Shown one piece after another: positions 3,001 to 60,136 of a stretch of 64,000 nt of DNA. Position 1 is the first letter of the stretch; every line of letters starts with the position of its first letter. The notes under the pieces are model-generated. The model saw only the letters and a program-made list of their open reading frames with translations. It had not been told where the DNA came from and searched no databases. Both the position numbers and the translations under genes were made by a program. Source of the stretch: a virus (taxonomy: Duplodnaviria > Heunggongvirae > Uroviricota > Caudoviricetes); the IMG/VR virus record IMGVR_UViG_2897328257_000003. One strand, 5' to 3'.

Positions 3001-6000
3001 NNNNNNNNNNNNNNNNNNNNNNNNNNNNNNNNNNNNNNNNNNNNNNNNNNNNNNNNNNNNNNNNNNNNNNNNNNNNNNNNNNNNNNNNNNNNNNNNNNNN
3101 NNNNNNNNNNNNNNNNNNNNNNNNNNNNNNNNNNNNNNNNNNNNNNNNNNNNNNNNNNNNNNNNNNNNNNNNNNNNNNNNNNNNNNNNNNNNNNNNNNNN
3201 NNNNNNNNNNNNNNNNNNNNNNNNNNNNNNNNNNNNNNNNNNNNNNNNNNNNNNNNNNNNNNNNNNNNNNNNNNNNNNNNNNNNNNNNNNNNNNNNNNNN
3301 NNNNNNNNNNNNNNNNNNNNNNNNNNNNNNNNNNNNNNNNNNNNNNNNNNNNNNNNNNNNNNNNNNNNNNNNNNNNNNNNNNNNNNNNNNNNNNNNNNNN
3401 NNNNNNNNNNNNNNNNNNNNNNNNNNNNNNNNNNNNNNNNNNNNNNNNNNNNNNNNNNNNNNNNNNNNNNNNNNNNNNNNNNNNNNNNNNNNNNNNNNNN
3501 NNNNNNNNNNNNNNNNNNNNNNNNNNNNNNNNNNNNNNNNNNNNNNNNNNNNNNNNNNNNNNNNNNNNNNNNNNNNNNNNNNNNNNNNNNNNNNNNNNNN
3601 NNNNNNNNNNNNNNNNNNNNNNNNNNNNNNNNNNNNNNNNNNNNNNNNNNNNNNNNNNNNNNNNNNNNNNNNNNNNNNNNNNNNNNNNNNNNNNNNNNNN
3701 NNNNNNNNNNNNNNNNNNNNNNNNNNNNNNNNNNNNNNNNNNNNNNNNNNNNNNNNNNNNNNNNNNNNNNNNNNNNNNNNNNNNNNNNNNNNNNNNNNNN
3801 NNNNNNNNNNNNNNNNNNNNNNNNNNNNNNNNNNNNNNNNNNNNNNNNNNNNNNNNNNNNNNNNNNNNNNNNNNNNNNNNNNNNNNNNNNNNNNNNNNNN
3901 NNNNNNNNNNNNNNNNNNNNNNNNNNNNNNNNNNNNNNNNNNNNNNNNNNNNNNNNNNNNNNNNNNNNNNNNNNNNNNNNNNNNNNNNNNNNNNNNNNNN
4001 NNNNNNNNNNNNNNNNNNNNNNNNNNNNNNNNNNNNNNNNNNNNNNNNNNNNNNNNNNNNNNNNNNNNNNNNNNNNNNNNNNNNNNNNNNNNNNNNNNNN
4101 NNNNNNNNNNNNNNNNNNNNNNNNNNNNNNNNNNNNNNNNNNNNNNNNNNNNNNNNNNNNNNNNNNNNNNNNNNNNNNNNNNNNNNNNNNNNNNNNNNNN
4201 NNNNNNNNNNNNNNNNNNNNNNNNNNNNNNNNNNNNNNNNNNNNNNNNNNNNNNNNNNNNNNNNNNNNNNNNNNNNNNNNNNNNNNNNNNNNNNNNNNNN
4301 NNNNNNNNNNNNNNNNNNNNNNNNNNNNNNNNNNNNNNNNNNNNNNNNNNNNNNNNNNNNNNNNNNNNNNNNNNNNNNNNNNNNNNNNNNNNNNNNNNNN
4401 NNNNNNNNNNNNNNNNNNNNNNNNNNNNNNNNNNNNNNNNNNNNNNNNNNNNNNNNNNNNNNNNNNNNNNNNNNNNNNNNNNNNNNNNNNNNNNNNNNNN
4501 NNNNNNNNNNNNNNNNNNNNNNNNNNNNNNNNNNNNNNNNNNNNNNNNNNNNNNNNNNNNNNNNNNNNNNNNNNNNNNNNNNNNNNNNNNNNNNNNNNNN
4601 NNNNNNNNNNNNNNNNNNNNNNNNNNNNNNNNNNNNNNNNNNNNNNNNNNNNNNNNNNNNNNNNNNNNNNNNNNNNNNNNNNNNNNNNNNNNNNNNNNNN
4701 NNNNNNNNNNNNNNNNNNNNNNNNNNNNNNNNNNNNNNNNNNNNNNNNNNNNNNNNNNNNNNNNNNNNNNNNNNNNNNNNNNNNNNNNNNNNNNNNNNNN
4801 NNNNNNNNNNNNNNNNNNNNNNNNNNNNNNNNNNNNNNNNNNNNNNNNNNNNNNNNNNNNNNNNNNNNNNNNNNNNNNNNNNNNNNNNNNNNNNNNNNNN
4901 NNNNNNNNNNNNNNNNNNNNNNNNNNNNNNNNNNNNNNNNNNNNNNNNNNNNNNNNNNNNNNNNNNNNNNNNNNNNNNNNNNNNNNNNNNNNNNNNNNNN
5001 NNNNNNNNNNNNNNNNNNNNNNNNNNNNNNNNNNNNNNNNNNNNNNNNNNNNNNNNNNNNNNNNNNNNNNNNNNNNNNNNNNNNNNNNNNNNNNNNNNNN
5101 NNNNNNNNNNNNNNNNNNNNNNNNNNNNNNNNNNNNNNNNNNNNNNNNNNNNNNNNNNNNNNNNNNNNNNNNNNNNNNNNNNNNNNNNNNNNNNNNNNNN
5201 NNNNNNNNNNNNNNNNNNNNNNNNNNNNNNNNNNNNNNNNNNNNNNNNNNNNNNNNNNNNNNNNNNNNNNNNNNNNNNNNNNNNNNNNNNNNNNNNNNNN
5301 NNNNNNNNNNNNNNNNNNNNNNNNNNNNNNNNNNNNNNNNNNNNNNNNNNNNNNNNNNNNNNNNNNNNNNNNNNNNNNNNNNNNNNNNNNNNNNNNNNNN
5401 NNNNNNNNNNNNNNNNNNNNNNNNNNNNNNNNNNNNNNNNNNNNNNNNNNNNNNNNNNNNNNNNNNNNNNNNNNNNNNNNNNNNNNNNNNNNNNNNNNNN
5501 NNNNNNNNNNNNNNNNNNNNNNNNNNNNNNNNNNNNNNNNNNNNNNNNNNNNNNNNNNNNNNNNNNNNNNNNNNNNNNNNNNNNNNNNNNNNNNNNNNNN
5601 NNNNNNNNNNNNNNNNNNNNNNNNNNNNNNNNNNNNNNNNNNNNNNNNNNNNNNNNNNNNNNNNNNNNNNNNNNNNNNNNNNNNNNNNNNNNNNNNNNNN
5701 NNNNNNNNNNNNNNNNNNNNNNNNNNNNNNNNNNNNNNNNNNNNNNNNNNNNNNNNNNNNNNNNNNNNNNNNNNNNNNNNNNNNNNNNNNNNNNNNNNNN
5801 NNNNNNNNNNNNNNNNNNNNNNNNNNNNNNNNNNNNNNNNNNNNNNNNNNNNNNNNNNNNNNNNNNNNNNNNNNNNNNNNNNNNNNNNNNNNNNNNNNNN
5901 NNNNNNNNNNNNNNNNNNNNNNNNNNNNNNNNNNNNNNNNNNNNNNNNNNNNNNNNNNNNNNNNNNNNNNNNNNNNNNNNNNNNNNNNNNNNNNNNNNNN

Positions 6001-46059: not shown

Positions 46060-47804
46060 AACTGGCACCGAACGTAAAAAAACAGCCACGCGGAATAAAA
46101 CACAAAGACACAGAGGTGATTATTTTCGCGGGTAGTGATGCGTGGGCACATGCAAAACAGTGGCAGGAGCAGGACGGCCCCGCATCCGGCGATAATGTGC
46201 CTCCTGTGTGGCTTGGGCCAAATCAGCTTGCCGAACTTGATGCACTGCAAATTGTTCCTGATGGAAAAAAACGCGTAAGGCTGTACCAGGCAGGAGAACT
46301 GGACTTGGTGGAGACCAAAAAGATTGGTCAGAAGCTGGCGGCGGCAGATATTCAGGACACAAATTTTTACCCCGAAGGAATGCACGCCCAGAAGTGTGAA
46401 AACTGGCGGCGCTATCTGAATGCTGAGCGTGAAAATATTGCCGCAGGGCTTACCATGCCGGAGCAGAAAAATACGCAACTGGCACAAATGGCAGACAGTG
46501 AGCGCGCCCAGCTGCTTGCTGGTCGATTTGATGGCGTTTGCGTACATCCTGAAAGTGAAATCGTTCACGTATGGCGCGGCGGGGTATGGTGTCCGGTCAG
46601 CACAATGGAACTTAGCCGCGAAATGGTGGCGATCTATTCAGAGCACAGGGCCACTTTCAGCAAGCGCGTAATCAATAACGCCGTGGAAGCGTTAAAAGTT
46701 ATTGCCGAACCAATGGGCGAGCCGTCTGGCGATTTGCTGCCGTTCGCCAATGGTGCGCTTGACCTGAAAACAGGGGAATTTTCCCCGCACACGCCGGAGA
46801 ACTGGATCACCACGCACAACGGCATTGAGTACACGCCACCAGCACCAGGGGAGAACATCCGCGATAACGCGCCAAACTTTCATAAATGGCTTGAGCACGC
46901 AGCCGGAAAAGACCCGCGCAAGATGATGCGTATATGTGCCGCGCTGTACATGATTATGGCGAACCGGTACGACTGGCAGATGTTTATTGAGGCCACCGGA
47001 GACGGCGGGAGCGGTAAAAGTACATTCACACACATAGCCAGCCTTCTGGCAGGGAAACAGAACACGGTAAGCGCTGAAATGACATCGCTTGATGATGCTG
47101 GTGGACGTGCGCAGGTTGTCGGGAGTCGTCTTATCGTCCTGGCTGACCAGCCGAAATATACAGGCGAAGGAACGGGCATCAAGAAAATCACAGGCGGCGA
47201 CCCCGTGGAAATTAACCCGAAATATGAAAAGCGTTTCACGGCGGTAATCAGGGCGGTGGTGCTGGCGACCAACAACAACCCGATGATATTCACCGAACGG
47301 GCCGGAGGTGTGGCACGTCGTCGCGTGATTTTCCGTTTCGACAATATCGTCAGTGAGGCCGAAAAAGACAGGGAGCTACCGGAAAAGATTGCGGCTGAAA
47401 TCCCCGTTATTATCCGCCGATTGCTGGCGAACTTTACCGACCCTGAGAAGGCACGGGCTTTACTACTGGAACAGCGTGACGGTGATGAAGCACTGGCAAT
47501 AAAGCAACAGACGGATCCGGTTATTGAGTTTTGCCAGTTCCTGAATTTTCTGGAGGAAGCGCGCGGCCTGATGATGGGTGGCGGTGGTGATTCAGTGAAG
47601 TACACGACCAGGAACAGCCTTTACCGCGTCTATCTGGCGTTTATGGCATACGCGGGCAGGAGCAAACCGCTAAACGTGGCTGAGTTCAGCAAGGCCATGA
47701 AGCCAGCGGCGAAAGTTTACGGGCATGAATATATTACGCGAAAAGTTAAGGGAGTAACGCAGACCAACGCAATTACAACAGACGATTGCGACGCGTTTTT
47801 ATAA
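46056..47804 (+). CDS. P4-family phage/plasmid primase / replication initiator with P-loop NTPase domain
   Basis: 582 aa; Walker A FIEATGDGGSGKST; N-terminal region (VIIFAGSDAWAHAKQWQEQDG) shared with island-2 primase, central region divergent. Confidence 0.85.
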   Translation: MKLAPNVKKQPRGIKHKDTEVIIFAGSDAWAHAKQWQEQDGPASGDNVPPVWLGPNQLAELDALQIVPDGKKRVRLYQAGELDLVETKKIGQKLAAADIQDTNFYPEGMHAQKCENWRRYLNAERENIAAGLTMPEQKNTQLAQMADSERAQLLAGRFDGVCVHPESEIVHVWRGGVWCPVSTMELSREMVAIYSEHRATFSKRVINNAVEALKVIAEPMGEPSGDLLPFANGALDLKTGEFSPHTPENWITTHNGIEYTPPAPGENIRDNAPNFHKWLEHAAGKDPRKMMRICAALYMIMANRYDWQMFIEATGDGGSGKSTFTHIASLLAGKQNTVSAEMTSLDDAGGRAQVVGSRLIVLADQPKYTGEGTGIKKITGGDPVEINPKYEKRFTAVIRAVVLATNNNPMIFTERAGGVARRRVIFRFDNIVSEAEKDRELPEKIAAEIPVIIRRLLANFTDPEKARALLLEQRDGDEALAIKQQTDPVIEFCQFLNFLEEARGLMMGGGGDSVKYTTRNSLYRVYLAFMAYAGRSKPLNVAEFSKAMKPAAKVYGHEYITRKVKGVTQTNAITTDDCDAFL

Positions 47805-48075
47805 TTTTTTGTAAAAGCCATCTACCCCATCTACCTGAACGAAATAAACGCATATTATTCAACATGATAAGTGGGTATAGGGCTAGGTAGAAGGCTAATA
47901 AAAGCTCTCTACCTCTTCTACCTGATTTTATCAGTTTCAGGTAGCAGGGTAGACGGCAGGTAGAGGAGTCAAAAAAGCTATCTACCCGCTGAAAGCGGCG
48001 CCATTACTGACATGATGAGCATTCGGGTAGATGGGTAGAGGGGGGGGAGGCACAACTAAAAACTTTTTAAACGAG
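47805..48075. repeat. Iteron array, putative island-1 replication origin
   Basis: At least 10 copies of TCTACC/GGTAGA-type motifs in both orientations (catctaccccatctacc, ggtagaagg, ctctacctcttctacc, caggtagcagggtagacggcaggtagagg, cgggtagatgggtagagg) directly after the primase gene. Confidence 0.65.
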
Positions 48076-48090
48076 GGGGGGTGAAAATAA

Positions 48091-48405
48091 ATGCGCATAC
48101 ATAAAAATCACTTAACAAACATGCCAGCCGAATACATGAATCAGGGGCGACAAATGACCCAAAAACGCAGAGACAGAACAGAGCCAAAATATAAAGCGTT
48201 AGACATGACTGAGCACACCTTAAAGGTGGCAATCAGAACGATAGACCGCCACACGCGGGAAGGATACGCGAAGGAACATCCCGACCTGATAAGCGCATTC
48301 ATGACCACGGCGGCGGCAAACTTTGCCACGCTGACAGAACGGGAGATTGCCGAAGCGGAACAGGTAACAACCATCAACGTTAAAACCGGAGAGGTGGAAT
48401 TATGA
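48091..48405 (+). CDS. Hypothetical protein conserved in both islands (upstream of ssb)
   Basis: C-terminal two-thirds nearly identical to island-2 ORF 59484-59729 (EGYAKEHPDLISAFMTTAAANFATLTEREIAEAEQVTTINVKTGE); SD gaggggggg. Confidence 0.55.
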   Translation: MRIHKNHLTNMPAEYMNQGRQMTQKRRDRTEPKYKALDMTEHTLKVAIRTIDRHTREGYAKEHPDLISAFMTTAAANFATLTEREIAEAEQVTTINVKTGEVEL

Positions 48406-48812
48406 CGGCACAGATAGCCGCTTACGGGCGGCTGGTGGACGACCCGCTGGTAAAACAGAGCAGCAAGGGCACACCGATGACTCTGGCGCGTATGGCGGTA
48501 TCGTTGCCATGCAGCCAGGCACATGACGGACAGGCGACGTTATGGTTATCGGTTATCGCATTTGGCAAACAGGCCGATTTCCTGGCTAAACATCAAAAAG
48601 GCGATGTTGCCAGCGTATCCGGCACGATGCAGGTAAGCCAGTGGACCGGACAGAACGGGGAAACACGGCAGGGGTATCAGGTTATTGCGGACAGCGTAAT
48701 CAGTGCCCGCGCGGCACGTCCTGGCGGGAACAGACGCAAAGCCACAGGCACACAGGGTAATCAGCCACCAGCGGGAGGTGATGACCCTTACGGTGATGAT
48801 ATTCCGTTCTGA
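48402..48812 (+). CDS. ssb: Single-stranded DNA-binding protein (SSB-like OB fold with C-terminal DDIPF tail)
   Basis: 136 aa; OB-fold pattern (GRLVDDP...W..V.AFGKQADFLAKH.KGD.V.V.G.....W....G) and the hallmark acidic C-terminus ...GDDIPF, as in E. coli SSB (DDDIPF). Confidence 0.75.
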   Translation: MTAQIAAYGRLVDDPLVKQSSKGTPMTLARMAVSLPCSQAHDGQATLWLSVIAFGKQADFLAKHQKGDVASVSGTMQVSQWTGQNGETRQGYQVIADSVISARAARPGGNRRKATGTQGNQPPAGGDDPYGDDIPF

Positions 48813-56019: not shown

Positions 56020-56433
56020 CTTGTTGATTAAAAGGCGGCTCAATTCTGAGCTGGGTAGCTGACGGCGGTAACTGTTTTATATTCCCGATAGCGCAAAAAT
56101 GCGCGGTCGGGCAGAATGACCACCACCTCAATCGTGACGGAGAGTGACAACCAGTGACACACCGTGACAAAAAGACGGTTTAACCGTTCATTAAAAATCG
56201 ACGTGATTTTGTGCTATCAGGATGACGTGGCCAACGTCATTTTTTAGCGAAAAATTCTGATTAAGGTCACTGGCTGAATGGTCATAATGACCACGCAGAC
56301 CATCGAGGCAACCATAGCGATCATCGTTACGGTTGGAGCTTTTCCGCCATTGGTGGAAAAGGTGCACATCTGGATCATCATTACGGTGATCAAGGGTATG
56401 TAAAACCCACCAGCCTGATTAAATGTTAACCGG
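56020..56433. repeat. Island-1 right-end non-coding region with repeated motifs (cggcggtaact x2, GTGACA repeats, palindrome tggtcataatgacca); probable attR/arm-site region
   Basis: Motifs partly shared with the island-2 right end (63612-63820); contains a 38-codon hydrophobic ORF at 56287-56403. Confidence 0.4.
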
Positions 56434-56444
56434 NNNNNNNNNNN
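56434..56444. other. Assembly gap (11 N) between islands
   Basis: Run of n; sequence resumes at the same conserved motif that follows the 623-N gap in island 1. Confidence 0.99.
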
Positions 56445-56559
56445 TGATTATACTGGAATCCAGTTGAGTGTTTATCACTCAATGCAAACGAGGCTGAAAA
56501 GGATTGCCGTCCTTTCGCAGCCTCTGACCACCAACGATAGCGAAAGTATCGAGGTAGCT
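56445..56559 (+). promoter_or_regulatory. Conserved control region (copy 2) with palindrome TTGAGTG-N5-CACTCAA (56464-56482)
   Basis: Near-identical to 44836-44952. Confidence 0.5.
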
Positions 56560-57082: not shown

Positions 57083-57382
57083 ATGAGAACATATTTATCT
57101 GGCTTGACTGCCAGCGGTTATGCACACCCCAAAATTATCCCCGGCGCTATTTATCTGGATAAGAACGGTAACAGAGTAACGGTAAAAGAACTGATGTTTG
57201 ACCGTGTGTATTTTATCCGTGATGGCTATTCATTTCTTAGTTCGCTGAACGTGGAGATCTTTATTAGCAGATTCAGGCGGGAAATCCCGCTTTCCAGAAA
57301 TAACCATGTGTCATGTATGGATGTTGATAAAAAACTACAGGAACTAAAAAACATGATTGCCGCGTGGAGAGAGCAGAAATGA
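57083..57382 (+). CDS. Hypothetical protein with GLTASG motif (99 aa)
   Basis: Counterpart of 45760-46059; stop overlaps primase start. Confidence 0.5.
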   Translation: MRTYLSGLTASGYAHPKIIPGAIYLDKNGNRVTVKELMFDRVYFIRDGYSFLSSLNVEIFISRFRREIPLSRNNHVSCMDVDKKLQELKNMIAAWREQK

Positions 57383-59196
57383 AAAAAGCGCCAAATTTAA
57401 AACACCAGCCACGTGACAAAATGATGGAAGTCATCATTTTTGCGGGTAGTGATGCGTGGGCACATGCGAAGCAATGGCAGGAACAGGACGGGCGACTGGC
57501 TGGCGACAGCGTGCCTCCTGTCTGGCTTGGAGAGCAACAACTTGCCGAACTGGACAACCTGCAAATCGTACCGGACGGACGCTATCGCGTGCGTCTCTAT
57601 CAGGCGGGGTTATTGCGTCCGGGGCTTGTTAATACCATCGGGCAGAAACTGGCAGCGGCAGGTGTCAGGGATGCTGATTATTACCCTGAAGGAATGCACA
57701 GCCAGAAACGGGAGAACTGGCGCGAATATCTGGAACGTGAACGGGCAGAGCAGGCGGAAAAGAAAAAGGTAGTTGAACTGCCTGTAAAGAAAAAAGAGCG
57801 GGTAAAAGACGATAACGCTTCATCACTGGCGCTTAACCAGATGGGAGCAAGTCAACGCGGCGAAGTTCTCCTGGCACATTATGGCGGTGAACTGGCGATT
57901 CATGCTGACTCTGACACTGTTCACTATTACAACGGCGTTGTATGGGAGCCAGTACAGGATAAAGAATTACAGCGAGCTATGGCACAGATTTTCATTGATG
58001 CGGAGATCAGCTATTCGCAGAACGCCATTAAATCGGCGGTCGATACCATGAAGTTAAGTTTGCCTGTAATGGGGAATACAGCCCGTAACCTGATTGGATT
58101 CAGTAACGGTGTTTTTGATACCCGGACAGGCGATTTTCGGGAGCATAACAAAAACGACTGGTTGTTAATTGCCAGTGAATTACCTTTCAGCCCACCAGCA
58201 GAGGGGGAAACGCTGGCAACACATGCGCCGAATTTCTGGAAGTGGTTACGCCGTTCGGTGGCTGAGAATGACCGCAAGGCGGATCGCGTACTGGCTGCAT
58301 TATTCATGGTGCTGGCGAACCGGTACGACTGGCAGTTATTCATTGAGGTAACAGGTCCAGGGGGAAGTGGTAAAAGCGTGATGGCGGAGATTTGCACCAT
58401 GCTGGCGGGTAAGGCCAACACGGTATCGGCAAGCATGAAGGCGCTGGAAGATGCCAGGGAACGCGCGTTAGTGGTTGGCTTTTCGCTGATTATCATGCCG
58501 GATATGACCCGTTACGCTGGTGATGGCGCAGGAATTAAGGCCATTACAGGCGGTGACAAGGTGGCAATCGACCCGAAGCATAAAGCCCCCTACTCAACAC
58601 GCATTCAGGCGGTAGTGTTGGCGGTGAACAATAACGCCATGTCATTCAGTGACCGCAGCGGGGGGATTTCACGTCGTCGGGTGATATTCAATTTTTCGGA
58701 GGTTGTACCGGAAAACGAACGCGACCCCATGCTGGCAGAAAAAATAGAAGGAGAGCTGGCGGTTGTGATTCGCCACCTGCTTACTCGTTTTTCTGACCAG
58801 GACGAAGCTAAACGCCTGCTGTATGAGCAGCAGAAATCAGAAGAAGCTCTGGTGATAAAACGCGAGGGCGATTCGCTGGTGGACTTCTGCGGCTATCTCA
58901 TGTCGTCGGTAATGTGTGATGGTCTGTTAGTGGGTAATGCCGAAATTATTCCGTTCAGTCCGCGCAGGTATCTTTATCACGCCTATCTGGCATATATGAG
59001 GGCACACGGATTCGGTAAACCTGTAACACTGACGCGCTTCGGTAAAGATATGCCGGGGGCAATGGCGGAATATGGCAGGGAGTATATGAAACGGAAAACG
59101 AAGCACGGTTTGCGTTCAAATGTGACCCTGACAGAGGATTCAGAAGACTGGATGCCATCATGTGCATCGGTCACAAATGACGATGGAAAAAATTAA
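57379..59196 (+). CDS. P4-family phage/plasmid primase / replication initiator (island-2 allele)
   Basis: About 605 aa; Walker A FIEVTGPGGSGKSV; N-terminus and C-terminal domain related to island-1 primase, middle divergent; start refined to MKKAPNLK; six-frame ORF starts at 57364. Confidence 0.85.
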   Translation: MKKAPNLKHQPRDKMMEVIIFAGSDAWAHAKQWQEQDGRLAGDSVPPVWLGEQQLAELDNLQIVPDGRYRVRLYQAGLLRPGLVNTIGQKLAAAGVRDADYYPEGMHSQKRENWREYLERERAEQAEKKKVVELPVKKKERVKDDNASSLALNQMGASQRGEVLLAHYGGELAIHADSDTVHYYNGVVWEPVQDKELQRAMAQIFIDAEISYSQNAIKSAVDTMKLSLPVMGNTARNLIGFSNGVFDTRTGDFREHNKNDWLLIASELPFSPPAEGETLATHAPNFWKWLRRSVAENDRKADRVLAALFMVLANRYDWQLFIEVTGPGGSGKSVMAEICTMLAGKANTVSASMKALEDARERALVVGFSLIIMPDMTRYAGDGAGIKAITGGDKVAIDPKHKAPYSTRIQAVVLAVNNNAMSFSDRSGGISRRRVIFNFSEVVPENERDPMLAEKIEGELAVVIRHLLTRFSDQDEAKRLLYEQQKSEEALVIKREGDSLVDFCGYLMSSVMCDGLLVGNAEIIPFSPRRYLYHAYLAYMRAHGFGKPVTLTRFGKDMPGAMAEYGREYMKRKTKHGLRSNVTLTEDSEDWMPSCASVTNDDGKN

Positions 59197-59460
59197 ACTT
59201 ATGGAATAACTGTTCACCACTGTTCAGCCTGCAATAAATGTCTTTTATATCAGTATATTATAGGGTGAACAGTTATTTATGAACTGTTCACCAAACTATT
59301 CACTGTTCACCTTTTTGATTCTTTATTGAGCTTTAAGGGTGAACAGTGGTGAACAGTTGGTGAATAGTTTTTGTGAAACTGTTCACCCCTTAACATCATG
59401 AATAAAAAGGGAAAATTGCAAAAGGTGAACAGGTGAAGGGTTGAAATGCAAAAATTTTAT
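59197..59460. repeat. Iteron array, putative island-2 replication origin (GTGAACAG-type)
   Basis: At least 10 copies of TGTTCACC/GGTGAACAG in both orientations (aactgttcaccactgttcag, gggtgaacagtt, gaactgttcaccaaactattcactgttcacc, gggtgaacagtggtgaacagttggtgaatag, ggtgaacaggtgaagg) right after the primase gene. Confidence 0.65.
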
Positions 59461-59483: not shown

Positions 59484-59729
59484 GTGACAACGAAGCACGC
59501 CAAAAAACCACAATCTCACGCCCTTGATTTGACAGAACACTGGCTGAGGGTGGCGATAAAAATCATCGACCGCAACGCCGGGGAAGGATACGCGAAGGAA
59601 CATCCCGACCTGATAAGCGCATTCATGACCACAGCAGCGGCAAACTTTGCCACGCTGACAGAACGGGAGATTGCCGAAGCGGAACAGGTAACAACCATCA
59701 ACGTTAAAACCGGAGAGGGGGCAGTATGA
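59484..59729 (+). CDS. Hypothetical protein conserved in both islands (homolog of 48091-48405)
   Basis: GTG start with SD gaggt; C-terminal region near-identical to island-1 copy. Confidence 0.55.
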   Translation: MTTKHAKKPQSHALDLTEHWLRVAIKIIDRNAGEGYAKEHPDLISAFMTTAAANFATLTEREIAEAEQVTTINVKTGEGAV

Positions 59730-60136
59730 CGGCACAGATAGCCGCTTACGGGCGGCTGGTGGACGACCCGCAGGTAAAACAGACCAGCAAGGGCACACCA
59801 ATGACGCTGGCTCGTATGGCGGTATCGCTGCCATGCAGCCAGGCACAGGACGGACAGGCGACGTTATGGCTGTCGGTCATCGCATTTGGCAAACAGTCCG
59901 ACTTCCTGGCTAAACATCAAAAAGGCGACGTTGCCAGCGTATCCGGCACGATGCAGGTAAGCCAGTGGACCGGACAGAACGGGGAGACGCGTCAGGGTTA
60001 TCAGGTTATTGCAGACAGCGTAATCAGTGCCCGTGCGGCACGTCCTGGCGGGAACAGACGCAAAACCACAGGCGCACAGGGTAATCAGCCACCAGCGGGA
60101 GACGATGATCCCTACGGTGATGATATTCCGTTCTGA
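59726..60136 (+). CDS. ssb: Single-stranded DNA-binding protein (SSB-like, C-terminal DDIPF)
   Basis: Near-identical to island-1 SSB; ends ...AGDDDPYGDDIPF. Confidence 0.75.
   Translation: MTAQIAAYGRLVDDPQVKQTSKGTPMTLARMAVSLPCSQAQDGQATLWLSVIAFGKQSDFLAKHQKGDVASVSGTMQVSQWTGQNGETRQGYQVIADSVISARAARPGGNRRKTTGAQGNQPPAGDDDPYGDDIPF

Follow-up and report, generated by a model that had tools for sequence, protein, structure and literature searches.

The 64,000-nucleotide stretch analysed here (the window; IMG/VR record IMGVR_UViG_2897328257_000003) carries two satellite islands. Each encodes an initiator-helicase, Pri-Rep, and each holds a non-coding block of short repeats, or iterons, directly downstream of the pri-rep gene. 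The Pri-Rep of island 1 (46056..47804, + strand; 582 aa; Pfam D5_N, DUF5906 and Pox_D5) is composed of a TOPRIM-like module (residues 1-125), a D5_N region (152-280), a superfamily 3 (SF3) helicase (~291-470) and a C-terminal winged-helix origin-binding domain (486-582, nt 47511-47801). The island 2 protein (57379..59196, + strand) has the same Pfam domains and the same architecture. It comprises 605 aa from the ATG at 57379, its open reading frame (ORF) opens with a GTG at 57364, and its origin-binding domain corresponds to residues 502-598 of the 610-aa ORF (nt 58867-59157). The two proteins are 47% identical. Among solved structures in the PDB, the island 1 protein matches the PriRep5 helicase of the Staphylococcus aureus pathogenicity island (SaPI) SaPI5 (7OLA, E=4e-15) and the origin-binding domain of P4 (1KA8, E=8e-6); the C-terminus of the island 2 protein matches 1KA8 with E=2.4e-24, and its helicase part matches 7OLA.

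The island 1 block (47805..48075, no strand assigned) contains 12 RGGTAGA/TCTACC iterons between 47821 and 48039, located at 47821(-), 47830(-), 47874(+, GGTATA), 47886(+), 47908(-), 47917(-), 47940(+, GGTAGC), 47948(+), 47959(+), 47981(-), 48026(+) and 48034(+). The island 2 block (59197..59460, likewise without a strand) contains 12 GGTGAACAGT/ACTGTTCACC iterons between 59209 and 59441, with GGTGAACAGT copies at 59209(-), 59219(-), 59264(+), 59283(-), 59295(-), 59302(-), 59338(+), 59348(+), 59359(+), 59378(-), 59424(+) and 59432(+). These counts allow one or two mismatches and include both strands. The exact motifs are concentrated in the same intervals: 10 of the 11 GGTAGA sites in the window fall within 47821-48039, and 8 of the 10 GTGAACAG sites within 59210-59432. 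The original prediction, made from the sequence of the window, held that each primase gene is followed by a non-coding block packed with a short motif in both orientations and placed the second array at 59197-59460. Both statements are borne out. The motifs that it named are real and island-specific, but the island 2 motif is fuller than was proposed, namely the complete 10-mer ACTGTTCACC/GGTGAACAGT, and the island 1 core TCTACC/GGTAGA carries an R in front.

Despite their different motifs, the two blocks share one layout: [- -] AT-rich spacer [+ +] [- - (-)] AT-rich spacer [+ + +] [-] spacer [+ +]. The order in island 1 is [- -] AT [+ +] [- -] AT [+ + +] [-] spacer [+ +]. The distances from the stop codon are nearly equal in both, at 17, 26, 70, 82, 104, 113, 136, 144, 155, 177, 222 and 230 in island 1 and 13, 23, 68, 87, 99, 106, 142, 152, 163, 182, 228 and 236 in island 2, and adjacent copies are 7-12 bp apart. 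The arrays begin 17 nt (island 1) and 13 nt (island 2) past the stop codons at 47804 and 59196, and the blocks end ahead of the next gene, which starts at 48154 or 48091 in island 1 and at 59484 in island 2. The AT-rich spacers of island 1 lie at 47836-47873 (71% AT) and 47923-47939 (76% AT), and those of island 2 at 59229-59263 (77% AT), 59312-59337 (77% AT) and 59388-59423 (72% AT). The first spacer of island 2 holds the weakest 25-mer duplex of its region, which lies beyond the 99.9th percentile of the window.

Could such arrays arise by chance? A scan that covered all k-mers, was blind to the finding and used 300 Markov simulations as its null returned the two blocks as the two densest k-mer clusters of the window. 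A 6-mer reached 10 non-overlapping copies within 270 bp, compared with a simulated maximum of 6, and the island 2 7-mer reached 9 copies, compared with a simulated maximum of 4. Poisson tails for the motifs named originally are ~1e-19 (GGTAGA) and ~1e-22 (GTGAACAG). The motif frequency had been expected to exceed background, and it does so beyond all 300 simulations.

RefSeq E. coli genomes have no annotation at either array, and Rfam at its gathering threshold found no family between 44836 and 64000; an RNA gene is therefore unlikely. Scans for promoter and terminator consensus sequences found nothing that would account for either block. We spotted by eye an integration host factor (IHF)-like site, TATCAGTATATTA, in the first spacer of island 2; island 1 lacks an equivalent. 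At the 3' edge of the island 1 block (48030-48090), an iteron-free stretch, GGGGAGGCACAACT.AAAACTTTTTAAACGA..GGGGGT, is kept in four homologous origins in which the sequence between iterons is variable. This conserved stretch may contain the ribosome-binding site or a control element of the next gene.

Origins of replication (oris) of phage-inducible chromosomal islands (PICIs) and SaPIs are defined as lying immediately 3' of rep, with 6-12 short iterons arranged in two opposed sets around an AT-rich region (PMC9371898; PMC6092414). The SaPI Rep is a self-loading SF3 helicase whose C-terminal winged helix reads island-specific iterons (PMC9371898). Both arrays in the window lie immediately 3' of their rep gene, both have 12 short iterons, of which two or more flank an AT-rich region on either side in opposed orientation (spacers 71-77% AT), and both Reps combine an SF3 helicase with a C-terminal winged helix. 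The likeness to the origins of SaPI1, SaPIbov1 and SaPI5 (PriRep5) thus extends to ori position, iteron number, opposed sets around an AT-rich region and Rep type. However, the sequence similarity is distant, the SaPI hosts are Gram-positive and the N-terminal module differs. Moreover, SaPI arrays consist of two sets, whereas the arrays here form three inverted units.

A much closer relative of island 1 is the Gram-negative PICI replicon EcCICFT073, taken from CFT073. The Pri-Rep of EcCICFT073 shares 90.6% identity with that of island 1, a value that rises to 97% in the last 100 aa. A 288-bp stretch 3' of its pri-rep contains 11 GGTAGA/TCTACC sites in the same order as in island 1, and its flanking genes (DUF4222, small ORF, single-stranded DNA-binding protein (SSB) and PerC) are those of island 1. 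The EcCICFT073 pri-ori replicated a thermosensitive plasmid, and loss of pri or ori impaired replication (PMC6092414, Fillol-Salom et al. 2018, ISME J). Because iteron, layout and Rep are shared with EcCICFT073, the island 1 block is the ortholog of an experimentally tested origin. In an alignment of the island 1 block with three homologous oris, EcCICFT073 included, the iteron cores are invariant and the flanks and spacers are variable.

Island 2 resembles P4. We took the P4 iteron from the annotated record NC_001609.1, which places an 'ori type 1 repeat' of sequence TGTTCACC, mostly embedded in CTGTTCACC, both in the origin and in crr, a second cis element. This type I repeat is contained in the island 2 iteron ACTGTTCACC, to which the 8 exact GTGAACAG sites extend; it is not the iteron of island 1, whose core is TCTACC. 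The P4 alpha protein is 50.4% identical to the island 2 Rep over residues 150-600, a region that includes the solved origin-binding domain. In contrast to the island proteins, alpha also has an N-terminal Zn-ribbon and TOPRIM primase domain.

The blocks were originally proposed to be replicon-specific origins. Orthology to the EcCICFT073 ori for island 1, and a P4 type I iteron together with a P4-alpha-like Rep for island 2, support this proposal. We consider it very probable that each block is the replication origin of a PICI and is fired by that island's own Pri-Rep by way of its C-terminal domain. After induction and excision, the island Pri-Rep would recognise the short iterons by its C-terminal winged-helix domain. 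Rep bound to the oppositely oriented iteron groups that flank an AT-rich spacer would lead to assembly of the SF3 helicase part of the same protein, and the assembled helicase would melt the spacer and load itself, presumably in both directions. Host enzymes and the host replisome, together with the island-encoded SSB, would then complete DNA copying.

Several observations weigh against this interpretation. The AT-rich spacers of island 1 are just moderately unstable, the weakest 25-mers being found at the block edges, and the third spacer of island 1 is 46% AT. The iteron cores of the two islands, TCTACC and TTCACC, differ at just two neighbouring positions. SaPI Rep1 discriminated poorly between origins in vitro (PMC9371898), so strict specificity is not guaranteed. 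Finally, the array that P4 has here, crr, serves as an auxiliary element in cis, 4.5 kb from the P4 origin proper.

The comparison with P4 raises the question of whether the blocks are bound by Rep merely to stimulate a separate origin elsewhere in the island. In P4, crr occupies exactly the same place, immediately past the 3' end of the alpha gene, contains the iteron found in island 2 and has inverted iteron groups around A-rich spacers as the islands do. The P4 record describes it as the 'cis required region for replication', separate from the annotated origin. However, P4 crr consists of two 120-bp direct repeats, and P4 depends on both ori and crr, which lie apart, whereas each island has a single cluster. 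No second iteron cluster was found in the complete homologous islands L001 and L002, which contain just 1-2 isolated copies outside the block. Since these islands hold one cluster each, the block appears to be the origin rather than an auxiliary element. Furthermore, the EcCICFT073 pri gene and the adjacent ori fragment sufficed for plasmid replication (PMC6092414). An auxiliary role in the manner of crr is therefore unlikely.

A scan of species-representative genomes yielded 80 related loci in Enterobacterales, Aeromonas and others, and 76 of these had enough downstream DNA for an array test over the 340 bp that follow the gene. A single 8-mer, with one mismatch allowed, reached 8 or more copies at 37 of the 76 loci compared with 2 of 293 control windows. 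The pattern ++-+++ was common to 21 loci, with relative offsets of 0, 9.2, 54.7, 75.3, 86.2 and 96.3 bp. Across 52 related replicons the site layout is conserved and the motif is variable. The motif varies on the common register xxTxTxxACC, and the cores include TCTACC, TTCACC, TTCAT, TACACC, TGCACC, TACAT, GTCACT, TTCCA and GTCCG.

Which part of Rep does the motif follow? The original prediction matched the different iterons to divergent central regions of the two primases. Protein and iteron are indeed matched, but the central region is the wrong part of the protein. The area under the curve (AUC) for iteron class is 0.87 for the C-terminal domain, 0.63 for D5_N and 0.67 for the helicase. 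Among 37 non-redundant proteins, iteron and C-terminal domain are correlated in a Mantel test (r=0.51), and the correlation persists given the helicase domain (partial Mantel r=0.46, p=2e-4), whereas the partial correlation for D5_N given the C-terminal domain is not significant (r=-0.17). Between islands 1 and 2, D5_N is 34% identical and the C-terminal origin-binding domain 27-32%, depending on how the domain is delimited. Natural chimeras agree with the correlations. L068 and L071 resemble island 2 in their central and helicase parts but island 1 in their C-terminal domain, and their iteron is TCTACC; L015 is the reverse chimera and has the iteron TTCACC. On this comparative sequence evidence, the part of Rep that iteron class tracks is the C-terminal winged-helix domain and not the central region, and the partial Mantel tests and the chimeras led us to reject D5_N as the specificity determinant.

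Within the C-terminal domain, the signal is concentrated further. Among the best 25 alignment columns that separate the TCTACC and TTCACC classes, 24 fall in residues 489-575 of the island 1 protein, and the columns that separate the classes fully correspond to residues 503, 564, 566 and 568. Among pairs drawn from the island-2-like clade, identity is 90% in the domain core and 86% in residues 559-575 when the iteron core is the same, but 83% and just 39%, respectively, when it differs. The Reps of L007 and L008 have helicases that are 99% identical and differ at four residues in the origin-binding domain, and the iterons change from GGTGTTCAT in L007 to GGTATACAC in L008 in concert at homologous positions (4255-4600 in each locus), except for a small number of intermediate copies kept in L007. 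These data hint, tentatively, that a segment of ~17 residues (559-575 of the island 1 Rep), which we assign to the 'wing' of this fold from position and not from structure, sets the central iteron bases as a simple evolvable code, that arrays are rewritten in concert and that cross-talk between satellite families follows as a consequence. We regard this code as possible but rather doubtful. If it is true, a co-resident P4-like alpha might fire the island 2 origin, or the island 2 Rep might fire the P4 origin. Such cross-talk is conceivable because the P4 iteron recurs in island 2 together with a P4-like domain.

Other island proteins were considered as readers of the iterons and rejected. The upstream DUF4222 protein is absent from 37 of the 52 loci, and all 37 of these bear arrays; it is also only 38-53% identical (in partial alignments) among four loci that share the island 2 iteron (L017, L030, L055 and L059). 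The small ORF and SSB downstream are 73% and 95% identical between the islands, respectively, although the iterons differ.

These same proteins bear on the idea that the blocks are operators or copy-control arrays, at which Rep or another island protein regulates the small ORF and ssb or handcuffs island copies. Both blocks are part of a unidirectional operon, with pri-rep before them and ssb after them, and no terminator or promoter consensus separates the genes. Plasmid iteron origins commonly double as control sites. However, a consensus scan detected no sigma-70-like promoter on the + strand within or after either block, DUF4222, the small ORF and SSB do not track iteron class, and inverted iteron groups around AT-rich spacers are the layout of an origin. 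A role in control instead of initiation is thus improbable, more so than the auxiliary role considered above, although the blocks could have a control role alongside origin function. We also rejected a plasmid iteron replicon of the Rep_3/pi/TrfA type. Such replicons have direct iterons of 17-22 bp, use a Rep_3-family initiator and recruit host DnaB. In contrast, the iterons here are 6-10 bp long and occur in both orientations, and the initiator is an SF3 helicase fusion without a Rep_3 domain.

The islands also carry late genes, and these differ. Island 1 encodes an HK97-type capsid, prohead protease, portal, head completion protein, HNH, and the small and large terminase subunits (TerS and TerL), which is the gene set of a capsid-forming PICI (cf-PICI) (bioRxiv 10.1101/2022.09.08.507074). 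This cf-PICI packaging module distinguishes island 1 from EcCICFT073, which has homologs of the lambda-type capsid and decoration proteins. Island 2 has homologs of the lambda gpE-like capsid, gpD-like decoration and Nu1-like TerS proteins. Its late genes are of the EcCICFT073 type, but its Rep domain and iteron are different. A direct repeat of ~90 bp (63604-63693 and 63737-63816; 89-96% identical, 133-bp spacing) lies 3' of the Nu1-like TerS gene of island 2 and may be the counterpart of the two cos-like sites reported for EcCICFT073.

Packaging of a satellite depends on specific signals, and each island has a gene for a TerS-like protein, so the arrays themselves might be imagined to be cos or pac sites recognised by terminase. 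The locus L086 (E. coli 210205630, NZ_CP015912.1 4478950-4489000) argues otherwise. Here an array 100% identical to that of island 1 belongs to a PICI whose packaging module is of the lambda type, quite unlike that of island 1, and which is inserted in a prophage portal gene. The array therefore travels with Rep and not with the terminase, and we rejected a packaging role on this ground. In addition, the motif covaries with the Rep C-terminal domain, and P4 has the same iteron without a terminase of its own. Among the explanations that we weighed, packaging is the least credible. The identity of the L086 array also indicates that the pri-rep/ori module has been exchanged between satellites that differ in packaging module and integration site.

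Do different iterons make the two islands compatible? It is plausible that they make the two replicons orthogonal. As related but different iterons match different origin-binding domains, each Rep most likely fires just its own origin. We counted occurrences of the arrays, at ≥~80% sequence identity, in 5,426 complete E. coli genomes. The island 1 array was present at 139 sites spread over 128 genomes, with a maximum of 3 in any one genome, and the island 2 array at 655 sites spread over 594 genomes, with a maximum of 6. Since the same array type recurs up to 3 or 6 times in a genome, orthogonality is not required for co-residence. E. coli EH53 has both array types at separate loci, and Xenorhabdus yunnanensis has three loci with one shared iteron, TATCTACC.

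The surroundings of the arrays agree with a PICI, a type of element marked by an integrase, an AlpA-type regulator, a unidirectional operon and interference/packaging genes: the window has an integrase at 41912-43162 and the late genes described above, and L001, L002 and L085 are complete homologs. Homologous modules were matched in 1,632 and 1,919 of the 5,426 complete E. coli genomes. On the + strand, the island 1 origin is followed (48154..48812) by a small ORF, which spans 48154-48405 or starts at 48091, and by SSB (48402-48812; Pfam SSB), in agreement with the RefSeq annotation of the homolog L001. The corresponding + strand genes of island 2 (59484..60136; Pfam) are a small ORF at 59484-59729 and SSB at 59726-60136. 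As noted above for these two proteins, conservation between the islands is high though the iterons differ (SSB 95% and small ORF 73% identical). The N-terminal module of the island 1 Pri-Rep (46056-46505) has homologs in E. coli proteins in which it is fused to AAA_25/RepA-type helicases (P0046, P0052, P0056 and P0079). Because it is found with different helicase cores, this module appears to be mobile among satellite replication proteins. Since the homologs returned for the N-terminal 150 aa are mostly partial E. coli and Shigella proteins, the structure model draws on a shallow alignment.

The window is a scaffold built from contigs that overlap. It contains 27,086 real bases, spanning 36270-64000, and the remainder is N. 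Further N runs lie within the real part at 43242-43252, 44213-44835 and 56434-56444. The stretch before the 11-N run at 43242 recurs after it (window 43106-43388), and the sequence from 44836, after the 623-N run, equals the sequence from 56445, after another 11-N run (44836-44900 and 56434-56510). E. coli homology to island 1 stops exactly at 56433, and phoQ comes next in E. coli; the chromosomal site of island 1 is between roxA and phoQ, the same as that of EcCICFT073. Because of this scaffold structure, the adjacency of the two islands and the owner of the integrase segment are uncertain.

What do these two blocks add to the understanding of satellite replication? The finding is real and its interpretation was mostly right, but the kind of element is already known. 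Work published in 2018 had already described and tested PICI origins in E. coli, and annotation of the island 2 iteron in P4 goes back decades. Reading of island-specific iterons by the Rep C-terminus is established for SaPIs, EcCICFT073 and P4, so the two instances bring nothing new to the biology. Modestly new are the localisation of specificity to a short stretch of the C-terminus, the rewriting of whole arrays in concert with it, a P4-type iteron in a PICI and a replicon module that moves between packaging modules. The first three of these could help in the design of orthogonal replicons. For the satellites themselves, the blocks would mark where each begins to be copied after induction by a helper phage, and recognising such arrays aids PICI annotation and replicon typing.
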